Origin: Chloroflexota bacterium
GTDB taxonomy: Bacteria > Chloroflexota > Limnocylindria > Limnocylindrales > CSP1-4
Assembly (NCBI GenBank): GCA_026004015.1
Contig: BPIH01000005.1
Location: 31,598-95,597, forward strand
Reading direction: 5' to 3'
Length of the DNA stretch: 64,000 bases
This document shows positions 4,793-22,111 of the stretch, piece after piece. The translations under genes and the position numbers were made by a program. The notes below the pieces were generated by a model. The model was not told the origin of the DNA, searched no databases, and saw nothing but the letters and a program-made list of their open reading frames with translations. Each line of letters opens with the position of its first letter. Position 1 is the first letter of the stretch.

Positions 4793-5941
4793 TCAGCCGA
4801 CGGCGGTGCCCAGGAGAGAACCGATGCCGAAGGTGATGGCCGCCGCCGCGAGACCGAAGGCGAGGGAGCGGAGGCCGGACCGCCACGGGTTCCGGCCGGT
4901 CAGGAGGGTGATGGCGGCGCCGAGGCCGAAGAGGGCGAGACCCGAGAGGATCGCCGAGGCAACGATGGCCGGGGTCCCCGAGGCGACGAGGAAGGGAATG
5001 ACGGGCACCATCGCTCCGGTGGCAAAGAGGGCGAACGAGGCAAACGCCGCCGTCCAAGCTGAGCCCCCGAGTTCGGCTGGGTCGATTCCAAGCTCCTCGC
5101 GGGCCATCGTGTCGAGGGCGACCGTCGGATCGCCGCTGACGATCCGGTGGGCGAGCCGCCGCGCCTCCTCGGTCGGCAGGCCCTTCGCTTCGTAGATGAG
5201 CCGGAGCTCCTCCTCCTCTTCGCTCGGGAAGACCCGGAGCTCCTCGGCCTCGGTGGCGATCTGGCTCTCGTAGAGCTCGCGTGCGCTCTGGACGCTCAGC
5301 CACTCGCCGAGGGCCATCGACAGCGACCCGGCGAGGAGGCCGGCGATCCCGGCGATGAGGACCGGCGGCCCGCCACCGCTCGCTCCGGCGACCCCCATGA
5401 CGAGACTGAAGTTCGAGACGAGGCCGTCGTTCGCCCCGAGGACACCGGCCCGAAGGGCGTTCCCGCCGATGGCCCGGTGGCGCCCCTCGAAGCGCGCGAG
5501 CATCGCCCCGGAGGCCCCGCCGGTGATCGTGTGGAGGAGGCGGGCGTGGGACCGCTCGTCGGCGGGGAGGGAGGTGCCGGCGGCCTCGGGCTGATGGTCG
5601 TACATCGTCCGGCCCTCCCGCTCTTCGAGGGCCATGATCGGGGCCACGGTTCCCGCACCGAAGCGGCGGGCGAGGAAGGCGAGGACCCGGGCCCGGAGGG
5701 TCGGTCGGAGCTCCGTCGCCGCCCCGGCCTCGCGGAGCCGGTCCCGCCAGAGGGCGGCGTGGCGTTCCTCGGTCTGGGCGAGGCGAAGGTAGAGGGTGGC
5801 GAAGCGCCCGTCGCCCGCGTTCGCCGCCATGGCCCGGTAGACGAGGGCTCCATCGACTTCGCCCTGGAGGTTCGCCCGCCAGCGGGCGAGGTCGCCGGCG
5901 GTCGGCGTCGCCGCTCGGGGAGGTTCGGCGGTCGTGGTCAT
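4793..5941 (-). CDS. VIT1/CCC1-family iron/manganese transporter with N-terminal ferritin-like (rubrerythrin-type) domain
   Basis: Intact 382-aa ORF. N-terminal ferritin-like helices (LQGEVDGALVYRAMA...TEERHAALW). C-terminal VIT1 membrane domain (LRAGVLGANDGLVSNFSLVMGVAG...GEWLSVQS...). Confidence 0.85.
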   Translation of the reverse strand: MTTTAEPPRAATPTAGDLARWRANLQGEVDGALVYRAMAANAGDGRFATLYLRLAQTEERHAALWRDRLREAGAATELRPTLRARVLAFLARRFGAGTVAPIMALEEREGRTMYDHQPEAAGTSLPADERSHARLLHTITGGASGAMLARFEGRHRAIGGNALRAGVLGANDGLVSNFSLVMGVAGASGGGPPVLIAGIAGLLAGSLSMALGEWLSVQSARELYESQIATEAEELRVFPSEEEEELRLIYEAKGLPTEEARRLAHRIVSGDPTVALDTMAREELGIDPAELGGSAWTAAFASFALFATGAMVPVIPFLVASGTPAIVASAILSGLALFGLGAAITLLTGRNPWRSGLRSLAFGLAAAAITFGIGSLLGTAVG

Positions 5942-13700: not shown

Positions 13701-14425
13701 ATGCGCCTGCTCGTCGCCGAAGACGACCGACGCCTCGCTGGTCTCCTCCGGCGCGGTCTCGAGGGGGAGGGCTACGCCGTCGACGTCGTCGGGACGGCGG
13801 AGGAGACTCGCTGGCTGGCGGCGGACATTCCCTACGACACGATCGTCCTCGACGTCATGCTCCCGATGGGGACGGCTTCGACGTCTGCCGGGACCTCCGA
13901 GCCCGGGGACGCTGGTCGCCGATTCTCTTCTTGACCGCCCGGGGCGGCGTCGCCGACCGGGTTCGGGGCCTCGACGGCGGCGGCGACGACTACCTCGTGA
14001 AGCCCTTCGAGTGGGAGGAGCTCCTGGCTCGAATCCGCGCGCTCGTTCGCCGCGGCGCGCACCCGCGACCGGCGAAGATCGAGCTCGGCGCCTTCGTGCT
14101 GGACCCGGCGAGCCGGGAGGTCCGGATCGCCGGCCAGCGGATCGACCTCTCCGCCCGCGAGTTTGCCATCCTCGAGGTCCTCGCCCGCCGCCCGAACGAG
14201 GTCCTCTCGCGGGCCGACATCCGGGAGGCCGTCTGGGACTGGGCCTTCGAGGGCCGCTCGAACGTCGTCGACGTCCACGTGGCCTCCCTTCGCCGGAAGC
14301 TCGGCGGTCAGCCTGACGGACCGCGAATCGAGACCGTCCGAGGCATCGGGTACGTCCTCCGGACCGGGCCCTCCGCTGACTCGGGGGCATCGGGCACGCC
14401 CCGGATTCCCGACGCCGACCGGTGA
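13701..14425 (+). pseudogene. OmpR-family response regulator, one frame change at about 13863-13866
   Basis: MRLLVAEDD...DTIVLDVMLP (frame of ORF 13677..13934) continues as DGDGFDVCRDLRARGRWSPILFLTARGGVADRVRGLDGGGDDYLVKPF...winged helix (frame of ORF 13931..14425). SD GGAGGTG precedes ATG 13701. Confidence 0.8.
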
Positions 14426-15756
14426 GCCTGCGAACCCGGCTCACCCTCTGGCTGGCCCTGGCTGCTACGAGCCTCGTCGTCGCCGCCGGAACCCTCGTCT
14501 GGGTCGCCGTCGGTCAGCAGCTCCGGCTCGGCCTCGACGAGACCCTCCGGCTTCACGCCGAGAGCGTCGCGACGGCCCTCGAGGCCGACCCGAACGCCCC
14601 GATCGACAACCTTCCGAGCGGCCGGCCGGCGGTCTTCACGATCCTCTACGGCGCCCGACGGCGTGCCGATCCGGAGAACGGGGATGGCGGCCGAGCTGCC
14701 GGCGGTGCCGCCGCCGGGCCGTTCGGAGCTCGTCGTCGAGAACGATGCGCTACGTCTTCTATGCGGTCGACGGCGCGGCGGGCCGGGTCGTGACCGGCGC
14801 GACCACGGCGGGTATCGAAGCGACCCAGGTGGCAGTGACCCAGGCCCTCGTGGCGGTCGGGCTCTTCGTCGCCGTGGTTGCTGTCGGCGGGAGCTGGTGG
14901 CTCGTGGGGCGGGTCCTGGCGCCCTTGAGCGCGCTCGCTGCCGAGCTCGAGACCATCGAGCCCGACGAGCTCGATCGACCCTTCGTCGGTCGTCCGGGTC
15001 GGGACGAGGTCGGCCGCCTGACCCGGTCGACCGCCGACCTCCTCGCCCGCCTCGACGAGGACCGACGCCGCCCAGCAGGCCTTCGTCGCTGCGGCCTCCC
15101 ACGACCTTCGAACGCCGCTCGCTGCCCTCCGGACCGAGATCGAGCTCGCCCTCCGGGGCCGGTCCGACGCGGGGCGCCTCCGTCGGGCCATCGAAGCGGC
15201 CCACGGCGACGGCCGTCCGGCTCGGGCAGCTCGCCGACGGGCTCCTCGCCCTGGCCGAGGCCGAACCGGGAGGCCGGCCCCTGACCCGAGGCCGGGTCAG
15301 CGTCGAGGCGCTCCTCGAGGCGGCCGTCGACGACTGCCGGTCGCTGGCCGACGGCAAGGGGGGTGGCGATCGAGGTCGCGGCCCCCGCGACCGAGGTCGC
15401 CGTGGATCGGGTCCGCCTCGAGCAGGCGCTCCGGAACATCGTCGCCAACGCGGTTCGGTACTCCCCACGAGGGGGCCACGGTCCGGATCGTGGCCGAGGT
15501 CGTGACCCGCCGCCTGCGGCCCGGCCTGCCGGGTCGGCCCTGGCTCCGGGTCGGTGTCGTCGACCGCGGACCGGGAGTGGATCCGGCGGTCGAGGGCCGT
15601 CTCTTCCTCCCGTTCGTCCGGCGCCACGGCGACGGCGAGGGGACCGGGCTCGGCCTCGCCATCGCCGCCGCCGCGGTCCGCGCCCACGGCGGTGAGATCG
15701 GCTATCGACCGGCGGCAGGGGGCGGCTCGGAGTTCTGGCTCGCGGTCCCTTGCTAG
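14422..15756 (+). pseudogene. sensor histidine kinase (TM-HAMP-HisKA-HATPase), about 6 frame changes
   Basis: The GTG overlaps the response-regulator stop. Recognisable pieces lie in successive frames: MSLRTRLTLWLALAATSLVV..., PDGVPIRRTGMAAELP..., RYVFYAVDG...HAMP, QQAFVAAASHDLRTPL (H-box), VRLGQLADGLLALAE..., VAIEVAAP...LEQALRNIVANAVRYSP, TVRIVAEV...DRGPGV...GTGLGLAIA. Junctions at about 14651, 14747, 15060, 15210, 15358-15363 (G6 run) and 15471-15477 (G5 run). Confidence 0.8.
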
Positions 15757-15889
15757 GTGACCGCCGGACGGCCCCGGGCTCTTACCTGGACTGGACAGCA
15801 GGCTCGGAGGGGGCTAGGCTCGGGTTCAGCGAGACGCAGGCATCGGCGACGCAACTTTGAGCGGGTGGGTCACGGCCAGGGAGGTCCGG

Positions 15890-16201
15890 GTGGTTGCCAG
15901 AAACACAGCCATTGCCGGGGCCGAGCCGGCGGCGACCCTCGCGGCCGAGGGGCTCGGGCGCCGCTATCGGCGATGGGGTCCCTGGGCCTTGCGGGACGTC
16001 ACGCTCGGGATTCCGGCCGGTTCGGTCACGGCCCTCGTCGGACCGAACGGCGCGGGCAAGAAAACACTCCTCCGGTGCTGGATGGGTTTCGAGCGCCCCG
16101 ACGCGGGCCGGGTCCGCATACGCTTGGCCTTCGGCGATGGCGTCCGCCGCGACCGCATCCGTCTGAGCCGTCCCACGTCACCCGCTGCGTCCCGGGACTG
16201 A
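15890..16201 (+). pseudogene. ABC-transporter ATP-binding protein, N-terminal fragment only (Walker A retained)
   Basis: LAAEGLGRRYRR...LRDVTLGIPAGSVTALVGPNGAGKKTLLRCWMGFERPDAGRVRI, after which family-like sequence stops near 16120. The rest of the ORF reads through the leader element. No Q-loop, signature or Walker B motif was found downstream. Confidence 0.6.
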
Positions 16202-16215
16202 TCGGCTCCGGGCGT
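16125..16215 (+). promoter_or_regulatory. leader element R1: crcB/fluoride-riboswitch-like core (degenerate copy) upstream of the MFS gene
   Basis: CGGCGAUGGCGUCCGCCG (16132..16149) matches the conserved P1 core GGCGAUGGnGUUCGCC. CUGAUCGGCUCC lies at 16198..16209. The pseudoknot (GGCGU vs GCUCC) has one mismatch. The linker and P2 are poorly defined. Confidence 0.35.
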
Positions 16216-16250
16216 GATCGCACCGTGAGGCACCGTGAAGGGAGGTGCAC

Positions 16251-17561
16251 GTGAGCGTGGCTGACGGGTCGGACGGACCGGACCACGGGAGTGAGACGAG
16301 GGTCGTGGACGCCCGTCGAACCGGAACCGGATCGGGGACGACGGCGGCGCCGGTCCCCTCGGCCGAGGCCGCTTCGGGCTGGCTGACCCCCGGCGTTCGG
16401 GGCATCGGGGCGGCCAGCCTCCTCTCGGACCTCGGGCACGAAGTCCCGACGACGCTCCTGCCGGCCTTCCTCTCGACCGTCCTCGGCGCGCCGGCGGCCG
16501 CCCTCGGCCTCATCGAGGGGCTCGCCGACGGCCTCTCGGGGCTGGCCAAGATCATCGGCGGTCCATTCGCCGACGAACCCGGACGGCGCCGCTCGATCGC
16601 CGTCGGCGGCTACACGGTCACTGCGGTCCTGTCGGCGGCGATCGGGCTCGCCACGGCGGCCTGGCAGGTCGGCGTTCTGCGGACCGGCGCCTGGGTCGCC
16701 CGCGGTCTCCGGACCCCCGCCCGGAACGCCCTCCTCGCCGATGCCGTGGACCGGCGAGCCTACGGGCGGGCCTACGGCTTCGAGCGGGCGATGGACAACC
16801 TCGGGGCCGTCCTCGGGCCGCTGGCGGCCCTCGCCCTCGTCAGCCTCCTCGACGTCCGGACGGCAATCCTCGTCTCGGTCGTGCCGGGCCTCCTCGCCGG
16901 CCTCGCCATCGTCTACGCCATCCGCCACATCCGCGCCGTGCCCCTCGCGACCCCCCGTCCCCGACGTCGCGTCCTCGATCTTCCCGTCCGCTCCCTCCTC
17001 CGGGGGCACCTCCGTCGCGCCTTCCTCGTCGTCGGGGCCTTCGAGGTCGGCAACGTCGCGGCGACCCTCCTCATCCTCCGCGCGACGGAGGTCTTTACTG
17101 CGGCCGGACGAGCCGACGCCGCCCAGCTCGCCGTCACCCTCTACGTCGCCTACAACCTCGCCGGCACCCTGGCGAGCGTCCCCTTCGGTCGCCTCGGCGA
17201 CGCGCGGGGCTTCACCGCGCCGCTCCTCGCCGGGTTCGCCCTCTTCGCCGGGGCGTACGGCGCCTTCGCCCTCGGACCGACCGACCCGCTCGTCCTGGGC
17301 GCTGCGTTCGTGGCCGCCGGCGTGGGCATCGGGATCGTCGAAACGGGCGAGCATGCGATCGTCGCCTCGGCCGCCCCGCCGGAAGCGCGAGGCTCGGCCT
17401 TCGGGCTCCTCGCGGGCGCCCAGAGCTTCGGCGACTTCGCCGCCAGCGGGATCGTCGGCATCCTCTGGAGCCTCGCCGGGGGGACGGTCGCCTTCGCGTA
17501 CGCCGCCACCTGGATGCTCATCGCCCTCCTTCTCGCCGCCATCGTCCGGCCGGGCCGCTGA
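16251..17561 (+). CDS. MFS transporter
   Basis: Intact ORF (track 16245..17561) with about 12 predicted TM segments. The GTG at 16251 follows the SD GGGAGGTG. Confidence 0.8.
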   Translation: MSVADGSDGPDHGSETRVVDARRTGTGSGTTAAPVPSAEAASGWLTPGVRGIGAASLLSDLGHEVPTTLLPAFLSTVLGAPAAALGLIEGLADGLSGLAKIIGGPFADEPGRRRSIAVGGYTVTAVLSAAIGLATAAWQVGVLRTGAWVARGLRTPARNALLADAVDRRAYGRAYGFERAMDNLGAVLGPLAALALVSLLDVRTAILVSVVPGLLAGLAIVYAIRHIRAVPLATPRPRRRVLDLPVRSLLRGHLRRAFLVVGAFEVGNVAATLLILRATEVFTAAGRADAAQLAVTLYVAYNLAGTLASVPFGRLGDARGFTAPLLAGFALFAGAYGAFALGPTDPLVLGAAFVAAGVGIGIVETGEHAIVASAAPPEARGSAFGLLAGAQSFGDFAASGIVGILWSLAGGTVAFAYAATWMLIALLLAAIVRPGR

Positions 17562-17644
17562 CGCCGGGCCGCTGACCAGCACGAGACCGGTCGGGGATCC
17601 CAGGGTCCGCCAGTTGACCGGCGTCGCGGTGGCCTCTATCCTTG

Positions 17645-17715
17645 CCTTCGGCGATGGAGTCCGCCGAGACGGAAGCCTCCGTCTGAACCGCCTCGAACGG
17701 CTGATGGCCCCTGAT
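17645..17715 (+). promoter_or_regulatory. leader element R2: crcB/fluoride-riboswitch-like motif upstream of the CPA2 antiporter
   Basis: CGGCGAUGGAGUCCGCCG (17649..17666) is P1-like. An extra perfect hairpin AGACGGAAGCCUCCGUCU follows (17667..17684). Then GAACCGCC-UCGAA-CGGCUGAUGGCCCC (17685..17711) resembles the AAC linker, P2 and the CUGAUG core. The pseudoknot GGAGU/GCCCC has 1 mismatch. Confidence 0.5.
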
Positions 17716-17752
17716 CGCTCGACGACCGGGGGTCGTTCGATTCCCGGGCCAG

Positions 17753-19048
17753 ATGGAGGTGGTCGGCGTGGACAACGTCTACCTTGTCGCCGCGCTTTGG
17801 ATCGGCATCGCGCTCGCTGCCAGTCTCATCTCGATTCGACTCGGGGTGTCGGTCGCCCTCATCGAGATCGGGCTGGGGATCGTCGCCGGGAACTCGATCG
17901 GCCTCAGGACGACCCCCTGGATCGACGTCCTGGCTGGCTTCGGGTCCGTCATCCTCACGTTCCTCGCCGGCGCCGAGATCGACCCGGCCTCCCTCCGGCG
18001 TCATCTGCGGGCGAGCCTCGCCATCGGAGCCGTCTCCTTCGCCGCACCCTTCGTGGCGGCGTGGGTGTTCGCCTACGTCGTCGCCGGCTGGGACATGGCG
18101 GCGAGCCAGATCGCCGGCGTCGCGCTCTCGACGACCTCGGTCGCCGTCGTCTACGCGGTCATGGTCGAATCCGGGCTCGCCGGCGCGGAGATCGGCAAGC
18201 TCATCCTCGCCGCCTGCTTCGTGACCGACCTCGGGACGGTGTTGGCGCTGGGGATCCTCTTCGCGAACGTGAGCCCGCTCCTCGTCCTCTTCGGGATCGT
18301 CGCGGCGGCGGTTCTCCTCACCGTCGGCCGGGTGACGCGCTGGTTCGTGGAGCGGTTCCCGGACCGCGTCTCGGAGCCCGAGACGAAGTTCCTCCTGTTC
18401 GTCCTCTTCGCCCTCGGCGGCCTCGCCTCGACGGTAGGGAGCGAAGCCGTCCTGCCGGCGTACCTCCTGGGTCTCGCGGCGGCGGGCGTCCTGGCCGAGA
18501 GCCGAGTCCTGGTGACGCGGATCCGGGCGACGGCGTTCAGCCTCCTCACGCCCTTCTACTTCATCAAGGCGGGACTCTTCGTCTCGCTCCCCGCCGTCGC
18601 CGCCGGGATCGGGCTCATCGCCGTGCTCTTCGCGGTCAAGGTTGGAACGAAGACGATCGGGGTTTGGCCGGTCAGCCGCGCCTTCGGCCTTCCGCCCCGA
18701 GAGGCGAACTACACAACCCTCCTCATGTCGACGGGGCTCACCTTCGGGACGATCTCGGCGCTGTTCGGGCTGAACCGCGGCTACATCGATCAGACGGCGT
18801 ACACCGTCCTCGTGACCGTCGTCATCCTCTCCGCCGTCGTCCCGACGCTGCTGGCGACGACGTTCTTCACCCCGGCGCTGGCGAGCCCGGAAGACACAGA
18901 GGAGTTCGACGCGGCCGAGGAGATCGACGCCGGCCTCCTGCCGCGACCCGAGTCGTGGACACCAGCGGCCGGATCCTCCAGGCGTGGGTCTCGGGACGGG
19001 GCGGAGGCCGATGAGCGAGCGATCTACGGCGAGGCCGAATCGGCCTGA
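17753..19048 (+). CDS. cation:proton antiporter, CPA2 (Kef/NapA-like) family
   Basis: Intact 431-aa ORF with typical Na_H_Exchanger sequence (SVALIEIGLGIVAGN...LTFLAGAEID...STTSVAVVY...). The real start may be GTG 17768, after the SD GGAGGTG. Confidence 0.85.
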   Translation: MEVVGVDNVYLVAALWIGIALAASLISIRLGVSVALIEIGLGIVAGNSIGLRTTPWIDVLAGFGSVILTFLAGAEIDPASLRRHLRASLAIGAVSFAAPFVAAWVFAYVVAGWDMAASQIAGVALSTTSVAVVYAVMVESGLAGAEIGKLILAACFVTDLGTVLALGILFANVSPLLVLFGIVAAAVLLTVGRVTRWFVERFPDRVSEPETKFLLFVLFALGGLASTVGSEAVLPAYLLGLAAAGVLAESRVLVTRIRATAFSLLTPFYFIKAGLFVSLPAVAAGIGLIAVLFAVKVGTKTIGVWPVSRAFGLPPREANYTTLLMSTGLTFGTISALFGLNRGYIDQTAYTVLVTVVILSAVVPTLLATTFFTPALASPEDTEEFDAAEEIDAGLLPRPESWTPAAGSSRRGSRDGAEADERAIYGEAESA

Positions 19049-20482: not shown

Positions 20483-22111
20483 TCAGGCCTCGAGATGGGC
20501 GAGGGCCGGGCACGGTCAGAAACTCGACGAACTCGTCGGCGAGGACGAGCCGATCGAGGAGCTCCTCCGCGGCCGGTCCCGTCGGGAGCCGCTCGAGCCC
20601 GACCGTCGCGGCCTCCTCCTCCCGGAGCCCGCCGATATCCGTCCGGCCGTGAGCGGCTCGCCGTCGACGGCGACCCGGATCGCCGCCAGAGCCAGAGGAG
20701 CGAGCGGGCGATCTCGGCCGTCGCCGCGTCCTCCATGAGGCTGTTGATGGCGACGGCGCCGCTCCCGGCGAGCCAGGCCGCCAGGTACTGGAGGGCGACC
20801 GAGACGTTCGAGCGGAGCCCGGCCTCGGTGACCCCGGCCCCCGGGACGGCGAAGTCGAGGAGGGCCTCGGCCGTCGACCGGTTCGCCCGGCCGCTCGAGC
20901 TGGTTCGGTCGCTCGCCGAGGGTCGCGTCGAAGACGGCCCGGGCCACCGGGACGAGATCGGGGTGGGCGACCCACGTCCCGTCGAAGCCGTCGGCTGCCT
21001 CCCGCTCCTTGTCCTCCCGGACCTTGGCGAAGGCGAGCTCGTTCGCCGAGGGGTCGCGGCGGCTCGGGACGTAGGCGGCCATCCCCCCGATGGCGTGGGC
21101 CCCGCGGCGGTGGCAGACCTCGACGAGCCGGCGGGTGTAGGCCCGCATGAAGGGGACGGTCATCGTCAGGGCCGCCCGGTCGGGCAGGACGAGGCCGCTC
21201 GCCCGGAAGGTCTTGATGATGCTGAAGAGGTAGTCCCAGCGGCCGGCGTTCAACCCCGTGGCGTGCTCGCCGAGGGCGAAGAGGATCTCCTCCATCTCGA
21301 GGGCGGCGAGGACGTGCTCGATGAGGACCGTCGCCCGGATCGAGCCCGGCGGGAGCCCGAGGCGCGCCTCGGCGAAGGCGAAGACGTCGTGCCAGAGGGC
21401 GGCCTCGGCGGCGTCTCTGGAGCTTCGGGAGGTAGAGGTACGGGCCCGAGCCGCGCTCGAGGAGCTCGCGGGCGTTGTGCCAGAGGAAGAGCCCGGTGTC
21501 GAAGAGCGAGGCGCTCACCGGCTGCCCCGTCGAGCCGGACCCGCGGCTCGTCGAGGTGCCAGCCCCGCGGTCGGACGACGAGCGTCGCCGATCCGCTCGG
21601 CCAGCCGATAGCGCCGGCCGTCGGGGGCGTCGTACGCGAGCCGCCGGCGGACCGCCGCGGCGATGTTCGCCTGCCCCTCGACGACGTTCGCCCAGGTCGG
21701 GCTGAGGGCGTCCTCGAGGTCGGCCATGAAGACCGAGGCGCCCGAGTTCAGGGCGTTGATCATCATCTTCGCCTCGGCCGGGCCGGTGATCTCGACCCGC
21801 CGATCGCGCAGGTCGGGCGGTGCGTCGGGAACCCGCCACCCCGGGGCGTGGGCCGGACCCGGGGGCGGCTCGGACGGGCGCTCGCCGGCGTCGATGGCGG
21901 CCTGCCGTTCGGCGCGGGCGGCGAGGAGGCGCCGCCGGGCGTGTCGGAACTCGCGCTCGAGCTCGGCGACGAAGGCGAGGGCCTCGGGGGTGAGGACGGT
22001 CTCGACCGCCGCCGGGTTCGGGCGATGGCGCCCGGGGCGGATCTCGAGGCCGTCGAGCGGGGCGCTGCGTCGCTCGGCGATGACCGCGGGGGTGCGGGTC
22101 AGCGGCTCCAC
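20483..22111 (-). pseudogene. aceB: malate synthase A, about 6 frame changes
   Basis: The GTG lies 2 nt after the isocitrate lyase stop. Family blocks are found in alternating frames: ...[34 protein letters not shown]..., [12 protein letters not shown]...[43 protein letters not shown]...[40 protein letters not shown]..., ...[44 protein letters not shown], ...[21 protein letters not shown]. Junctions at about 21583, 21418, 20888, 20688, 20644 and 20506. Confidence 0.85.

Follow-up and report, generated by a model that had tools for sequence, protein, structure and literature searches.

A predicted fluoride riboswitch in front of a cation/proton antiporter gene in a Limnocylindria-type Chloroflexota genome

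The closest described relative of the leader studied here is the crcB motif (RF01734; Weinberg et al. 2010, PMC2864571). The two share a P1 stem with its GAUGG loop, an AAC linker, P2 and the CUGAUG core, and further a pseudoknot made by the 3' tail, a conserved U after it and a location in the 5' UTR. The leader differs from RF01734 by a 17-nt insertion (an 18-nt hairpin at 17667-17684) that is common in these environmental lineages, by an A.C mismatch at the third pair of the pseudoknot, by a P2 of three pairs, and by a G+C-rich platform with a weak U-tract. For the RF01734 family as a whole an "aptamer plus overlapping hairpin" motif has been reported, with terminators as well as sequestering hairpins (PMC12667848).

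Fluoride riboswitches are also known in front of antiporter genes. PMC11139923, citing Baker et al. 2012, places Na+/H+ antiporters as the second most common gene class associated with fluoride riboswitches, after the exporters. The leader resembles these cases in having a Na_H_Exchanger gene directly behind the aptamer; the antiporter found here belongs to a CPA2-like clade, carries a T-D motif and is about 426 aa long. Two other riboswitches, for Li+ (nhaA-I) and Na+ (DUF1646), likewise control cation transporter genes (PMC9646797), but the leader matches neither of them in sequence or structure. The closest solved structure by sequence is that of Thermus thermophilus NapA, an electrogenic CPA2 Na+/H+ antiporter (PDB 4BWZ; E 5e-6, about 355 residues aligned), a distant relative at 29 bits. 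In this single pairwise alignment of low identity, D156-D157 of NapA, its ion-binding pair in TM5, reads T-D in the antiporter, and a K aligns with the lysine of TM10.

We analyzed a stretch of 64,000 nucleotides of contig BPIH01000005.1, hereafter the window, with its leader and a set of related loci. Very probably the leader belongs to the canonical class of fluoride riboswitches (RF01734) and works as an ON switch of a monocistronic gene, that of a cation/proton antiporter.

The aptamer and its conserved helices

The preliminary description of this DNA, which was made from the letters and open reading frames, had seen a fluoride riboswitch-like leader in the 191-nt gap between an MFS transporter gene and the antiporter. 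The gap has this length when counted from the stop of the MFS gene (17561) to the ATG at 17753, and the leader sequence elements that had been listed were all found in place. We ran the suggested comparison with RF01734 by scanning the 64 kb, on both strands, with 4227 Rfam families. RF01734 matches 17641-17720 (+) over model positions 1-64 of 64, with 40.2 bits for a gathering score of 34 (E 1.1e-7), a match well beyond chance that bears out the identification. This score is among the weaker ones, as the aptamers that we collected span 34 to 61 bits. At the curated thresholds the scan of the whole window returned only RF01734 and two tRNAs. A permissive scan of 17300-18000 (701 nt, the same 4227 families, E up to 10) gave the fluoride family with an E value of 1.2e-9 and, besides it, only three snoRNA matches at chance level. 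The proposal that the element might sense another small ion was not borne out: in the permissive scan neither the Li+ (nhaA-I) nor the Na+ (DUF1646) riboswitch family gave a match at E up to 10, both families being part of Rfam 15.

Within the RF01734 match the structured core extends from 17650 to 17712. In the cmscan alignment P1 (17650-17665, +) is formed by GGCG 17650-17653 and CGCC 17662-17665, to which C17649:G17666 adds a pair; the whole stem and loop, CGGCGAUGGAGUCCGCCG, is thus 17649-17666. The loop of P1, AUGGAGUC, holds the conserved GAUGG, in agreement with the "P1 enclosing GAUGGnGU loop" of RF01734. The linker GAACC (17685-17689, +) contains the conserved AAC and aligns to uuAACC of the model. 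It leads, as in RF01734, to a P2 closed by the C of CUGAUG: P2 (17690-17701, +) pairs GCC 17690-17692 with GGC 17699-17701 around the loop UCGAAC in the cmscan alignment, and has only three standard pairs here, the fourth being a U.C flagged as non-standard by cmscan. The last part of the aptamer (17701-17712, +) consists of the core CUGAUG (17701-17706), GGCCCC as 3' strand of the pseudoknot (17706-17711) and U17712; the tail GCCCC corresponds to 17707-17711 (GCCCCU, 17707-17712). By analogy with the crystal structure of the class, we take the core nucleotides 17701-17712 to belong to the fluoride/Mg2+ site, and U17712 and A17704 presumably form the long-range pair of that structure. This site was reportedly described by Ren and colleagues in 2012 in the structure of the T. 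petrophila riboswitch.

The stems put forward in the preliminary description were checked for covariation in an alignment, A1, of the window and 27 Limnocylindria-type leaders. Pairing amounts to 96-100% in P1, the extra hairpin and P2. The four pairs of P1 are standard in 28 of 28 sequences and three of them are invariant. In P2 the first two pairs are GC and CG in all 28 sequences, and the third covaries (CG in 26, AU in 2). The G, A, A and C of the linker are invariant, and the G, C, U, A, U, G, G and C, C, U of the core show no variation; U17712 and A17704 are both present and invariant. Six pairs are changed on both sides, against 2.4 in shuffled alignments, and none of 500 shuffles reaches the observed value; in slid controls pairing falls to 24-48%. 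RNAalifold, which was given no structure, recovered P1, the extra hairpin, P2 and the platform hairpin. The leader of the closest relative, a Chloroflexota MAG (locus L001), has the same P2 of three pairs and the same platform. Judged from its sequence, the element genuinely belongs to the fluoride riboswitch class and appears to be intact; homology suggests that it binds fluoride.

The extra hairpin lies between P1 and the linker (17667-17684, +), where the cmscan alignment shows the 17-nt insertion. It pairs AGACGGA with UCCGUCU around the loop AGCC, with a folding energy of -9.2 kcal/mol. The seven perfect base pairs noticed in the preliminary description are present, but the hairpin is not atypical as had been thought: a second hairpin at this place is predicted in 57 of the 89 collected aptamers (29/29 of the Limnocylindria type and 28/60 from other phyla) and its arms covary. 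In A1 the hairpin pairs in 98% of its cells, and changes on both sides occur in 4 of 6 pairs. We found no description of an inserted hairpin in PMC12667848.

The pseudoknot would join GGAGUC (17656-17661, +) in the loop of P1 to its partner at 17706-17711. As announced in the preliminary description it has one A-C mismatch: five of six pairs form (G17656:C17711, G17657:C17710, G17659:C17708, U17660.G17707 and C17661:G17706) and A17658.C17709 is unpaired. The six-pair pseudoknot of RF01734 is therefore present with an exception at one pair, and this exception is found throughout the clade. Pseudoknots were counted in A1 and in 85 of the 89 aptamers, the other four not being parseable. At least one mismatch occurs in 25 of 29 Limnocylindria-type aptamers; it falls on the third pair in 24 of them, and on this pair only in 23. 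It takes the forms U.C, C.U, U.U and A.C (columns 12 and 73 of A1). Among aptamers of other phyla the six-pair pseudoknot is perfect in 51 of 56. The A.C mismatch is a trait of the whole clade and not a private defect of this locus. Both features that could seem atypical, the extra hairpin and the mismatch, recur in the relatives, and the Rfam model accommodates them. The clade as a whole tolerates or selects a pseudoknot mismatch, which could bear on the tuning of sensitivity in hosts of high G+C content.

The antiporter gene and its linkage to fluoride aptamers

The longest open reading frame of the antiporter runs from ATG 17753 to 19048 (431 aa). The ATG was taken as the start in the preliminary description, but the conserved N-terminus (V/M-D-N-V-Y) and the spacing of the Shine-Dalgarno sequence favor GTG 17768, which gives a gene of 426 aa at 17768-19048 (+). 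Because GTG/ATG-GAC-AAC is conserved in relatives and preceded by GGAGG, GTG 17768 is probably the real start. Here the Shine-Dalgarno GGAGG is at 17755-17759 (+), 8 nt before GTG 17768; in 30 of 32 relatives a GGAGG stands 4-9 nt from the start. A promoter-like site, TTGACC and TATCCT separated by 17 nt (17614-17642, +), came out of a consensus scan as one site for 0.0 expected in shuffles, and the same TTGACC...TATCCT is present in the sequence of the closest relative. The predicted promoter would put the start of the transcript at about 17649-17650, i.e. at the foot of P1.

The product matches the Pfam family Na_H_Exchanger (PF00999) with an E value of 6e-38 and 131 bits, for a cutoff of 26.2. 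It had been called a CPA2 antiporter. The family holds, and the best matches are to CPA2/NapA proteins, but the membership cutoff of CPA2 is missed: the best NCBIfam match, TIGR00932 (CPA2), reaches 96.3 bits, far below its cutoff of 238.3. As judged from these matches, CPA2 is the nearest subfamily of the antiporter and not a demonstrated membership. The reading frame is intact, has a third-position GC of 0.91 and is 92% identical over its full length to that of the closest relative. We looked in the literature for a functional study of this antiporter clade and found none.

That the antiporter is the regulated gene, as had been supposed, agrees with its place directly behind the predicted riboswitch and with the opposite orientation of the genes that follow. 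It is monocistronic, the next recognizable genes (a cupin, a malate synthase fragment and an isocitrate lyase) being on the other strand. The association of RF01734 with fluoride-response genes is found here in the class of the antiporter.

The linkage was examined in 80 loci from representative genomes, chosen around relatives of the antiporter at 50-92% identity; they span Chloroflexota/Limnocylindria, Gemmatimonadota, Binatia, Verrucomicrobiota, Thermomicrobia, Bacteroidota and others. An RF01734 match above the gathering score lies upstream and on the same strand in 71 of the 80 antiporter loci, directly adjacent in 61. In several loci from other phyla the aptamer is followed first by a short ORF of 126-141 aa, CrcB-like as judged by eye, and then by the antiporter. 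Together these analyses show that the leader fits the covariance model, that all its helices are conserved and covary, and that the linkage to this antiporter clade is conserved.

About 89% of the loci, in many phyla, are riboswitch-linked, so the antiporter may not be a housekeeping Na+/H+ exchanger. We see a slim chance that the transporter of this clade is dedicated to fluoride stress or, separately, that the Limnocylindria-type aptamers form a tuned subclass with a different fluoride threshold. A role in fluoride stress, if true, would imply an unrecognized substrate or coupling, e.g. a proton extrusion matching the entry of HF and exit of F, or the transport of a fluoride-metal species; in a tuned subclass, the deliberately mismatched pseudoknot would set the threshold. 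As the CPA2-like clade is almost always riboswitch-linked, it offers a clean target for asking why antiporters join the fluoride response.

The expression platform and the mode of control

Downstream of the aptamer a hairpin can form at 17706-17734 (+), which by its features may be a terminator-like or a sequestering one. The 3' strand of the pseudoknot serves as its 5' arm, GGCCCCUG, in correspondence with the overlapping platform of RF01734, and the 3' arm, CCGGGGGUC, is 17726-17734. Folded alone this hairpin has an energy of -18 kcal/mol. In stepwise folding it is predicted once the transcript has reached 17734-17745, while P1, the extra hairpin and P2 stay intact; in the isolated platform region there are competing folds of similar energy and the z-score is -1.1. 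The homologous helix is 96.9% paired in A1, with CG/UG/UA and GC/AU exchanges. The CG/UG/UA exchanges fall on the very column where the pseudoknot has its mismatch: in 28 of 28 sequences the 3' nucleotide of this pair finds a partner in the competing downstream hairpin (CG 19, UG 6, UA 3). In the loci of the clade (L001-L028) the mismatch may adjust the competition between pseudoknot and terminator where the RNA is very rich in G+C.

The hairpin is followed by the tail GUUCGAUUCCC (17735-17745, +), a weak U-tract. The 9 nt after column 107 of A1 (CGUUCGAUU, 17734-17742) hold 4 U, in a window of about 73% G+C. In the relatives the corresponding tails have 2-7 U in 9 nt, mostly 4-7, and are enriched in U compared with the genome composition. 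A consensus scan for canonical intrinsic terminators called none in the leader. With just 4 U in 9 nt and no call by the terminator scan, intrinsic termination is not assured.

Another platform had been proposed earlier, the pairing of UCGAACG (17693-17699) with CGUUCGA (17734-17740). The two strands are indeed complementary and the helix belongs to the MFE fold, where it extends the alternative (platform) structure, but it is not a conserved platform: the closest relative has an uncompensated G-to-A change, and inspection by eye of the other leaders that were compared showed no such complementarity. The conserved and covarying platform is the hairpin 17706-17734 and not the earlier pairing.

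Homology and architecture suggest the following course for fluoride binding, the ON direction and the role of the antiporter. The transcript would start at about 17649, probably from the promoter-like site at 17614-17642, and P1, the optional extra hairpin and P2 would fold first. In the presence of fluoride (a Mg2+-F complex in this class), GGAGUC (17656-17661) would pair with GGCCCC (17706-17711) into the pseudoknot. In its absence the GGCCCC(UG) strand would be captured by the 3' arm 17726-17734 into the hairpin of 18 kcal/mol with its U-enriched tail, which would then halt transcription and/or leave the ribosome-binding site occluded. Fluoride, by holding the pseudoknot, would block the hairpin, as in the classic ON design of the class, and raise the expression of the antiporter, which presumably relieves the proton/cation imbalance caused by the entry of HF. 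We infer that termination is favored over translational control; the weak U-tract keeps the latter a live alternative.

If control were mainly translational, the same fluoride aptamer would leave the Shine-Dalgarno GGAGG (17755-17759) sequestered without fluoride and free it on binding, and the hairpin 17706-17734 would be a sequestering or relay element and not a terminator. We consider this rather unlikely, but several observations point to it. Besides the poor U-tract and the empty terminator scan, the unconstrained fold pairs the Shine-Dalgarno with CCUCC 17676-17680 of the extra hairpin, and with the aptamer constrained to form, its predicted accessibility in the window goes up from 0.03 to 0.38. 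Accessibility also rises in 18 of 32 leaders (mean 0.26 to 0.41), an anti-Shine-Dalgarno (CUCCGG) lies just 3' of the hairpin in several relatives, and fluoride riboswitches that act on translation are known (PMC12667848). On the other hand accessibility drops in 7 of the 32 leaders and is flat in the rest, and on account of this inconsistency the sequestration of the Shine-Dalgarno was rejected as a conserved mechanism. Moreover, the CCUCC of the extra hairpin is limited to the window and its closest relative, which places it beyond covariation testing, and the tails of most relatives are enriched in U (up to 7 of 9 nt), which is consistent with termination.

Two further readings question the response to fluoride itself. 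The leader could be a decaying copy that no longer responds to its ligand, the antiporter being constitutive or silent: the mismatched pseudoknot with the P2 of 3 bp, a degenerate leader copy 1.5 kb upstream and several neighboring genes of fragmentary appearance would fit. This is nevertheless very improbable, as the invariant core nucleotides are all intact and the score exceeds the curated threshold, the mismatch is the rule of the clade (25 of 29 copies), the closest relative retains the P2 of three pairs and the platform, and the antiporter frame is unbroken and shares 92% identity with its full-length counterpart there. It is more improbable still that the Limnocylindria-type aptamer is a variant sensing another ligand, such as Na+, Li+ or some other ion relevant to an antiporter. 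The cation/proton antiporter downstream, the systematic departure of the clade from the consensus pseudoknot and the fact that a fluoride exporter was not found in the window (for CLC, among ten ORFs scanned) speak for such a variant. Yet the mismatch falls on a central pair of the pseudoknot helix and the nucleotides conserved for ligand binding are all invariant; orthologues in other phyla stand behind fully canonical fluoride aptamers, some with the CrcB-like ORF in between; and the nhaA-I and DUF1646 models gave no match even at E up to 10.

With the leader read as a fluoride ON switch, the annotation gains a regulon whose response to fluoride is suggested by sequence, in a Limnocylindria-type Chloroflexota lineage that is uncultured and very rich in G+C, and a corrected probable start codon for the antiporter. 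To riboswitch biology the locus adds little, since the class, the design of the platform and the association with antiporters were already known. The most useful leads are the clade-wide linkage of a T-D CPA2-like transporter to fluoride sensing and the mismatched pseudoknot of the clade.

Neighboring genes and other aptamers

The preliminary description had reported no crcB or CLC-F gene in the window, and our searches agree. No CrcB was found in the window at E up to 10 with an HMM made from six CrcB-like ORFs that come from the related loci. No CLC protein was found by Pfam among ten ORFs, nine of which are among the largest.

The MFS transporter gene directly upstream of the riboswitch (16245-17561, +) encodes a protein 41-43% identical (E about 1e-70) to the products of the MFS genes of loci L043 and L079, which have RF01734 aptamers of their own. 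By this identity it belongs to an MFS family associated with fluoride riboswitches. In the closest relative this MFS gene lacks a leader, its start overlapping the ORF before it.

In the window this MFS gene is preceded by a degenerate copy of the fluoride leader (16130-16232, +), 1.5 kb upstream of the intact aptamer. A clade-specific model (R1) matches it with 28.3 bits (rough E 1.5e-7), and RF01734 gives only a local match of 16 nt in P1 (13.7 bits). The copy keeps P1 and the P1 loop intact. Its linker is GAGC in place of GAAC, CUGAUCG with an extra C replaces CUGAUG, the conserved U after the pseudoknot is a G, and the extra hairpin is down to about 3 bp. A second functional aptamer in front of the MFS gene was therefore rejected in favor of a degenerate copy, probably, by its sequence, a relic that no longer senses fluoride.

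Fragmentary genes lie nearby at 15857-16201 (+), 15490-15756 (+), 13931-14425 (+) and 20516-21295 (-). They comprise an ABC ATPase that ends after position 45 of the 137 of its profile and runs on into the degenerate aptamer, part of the ATPase domain of a histidine kinase, a response regulator that keeps just the terminal part of its receiver domain, and a partial malate synthase. They may reflect either frameshift errors of the assembly, or a real decay and rearrangement around an inserted MFS-antiporter cassette.

More than one fluoride aptamer per locus is common in the collected loci, with two or three within 7 kb ("fluoride islands"). This is the case in L025, L027, L033, L040, L043, L049, L051, L053, L060, L063, L064, L066, L070, L072 and L079; in L066 two aptamers are in tandem, 50 nt apart. 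The islands would control the antiporter and ORFs that by eye resemble crcB, MFS transporters, ATPase-like proteins and proteins whose N-terminus is DUF190-like. A riboswitch of another class, unrelated to the fluoride leader, is found in a locus of a Gemmatimonadaceae MAG (L078): a c-di-GMP-I riboswitch (RF01051, 57.3 bits) at 5718-5796 (+), about 1.6 kb downstream of the antiporter.
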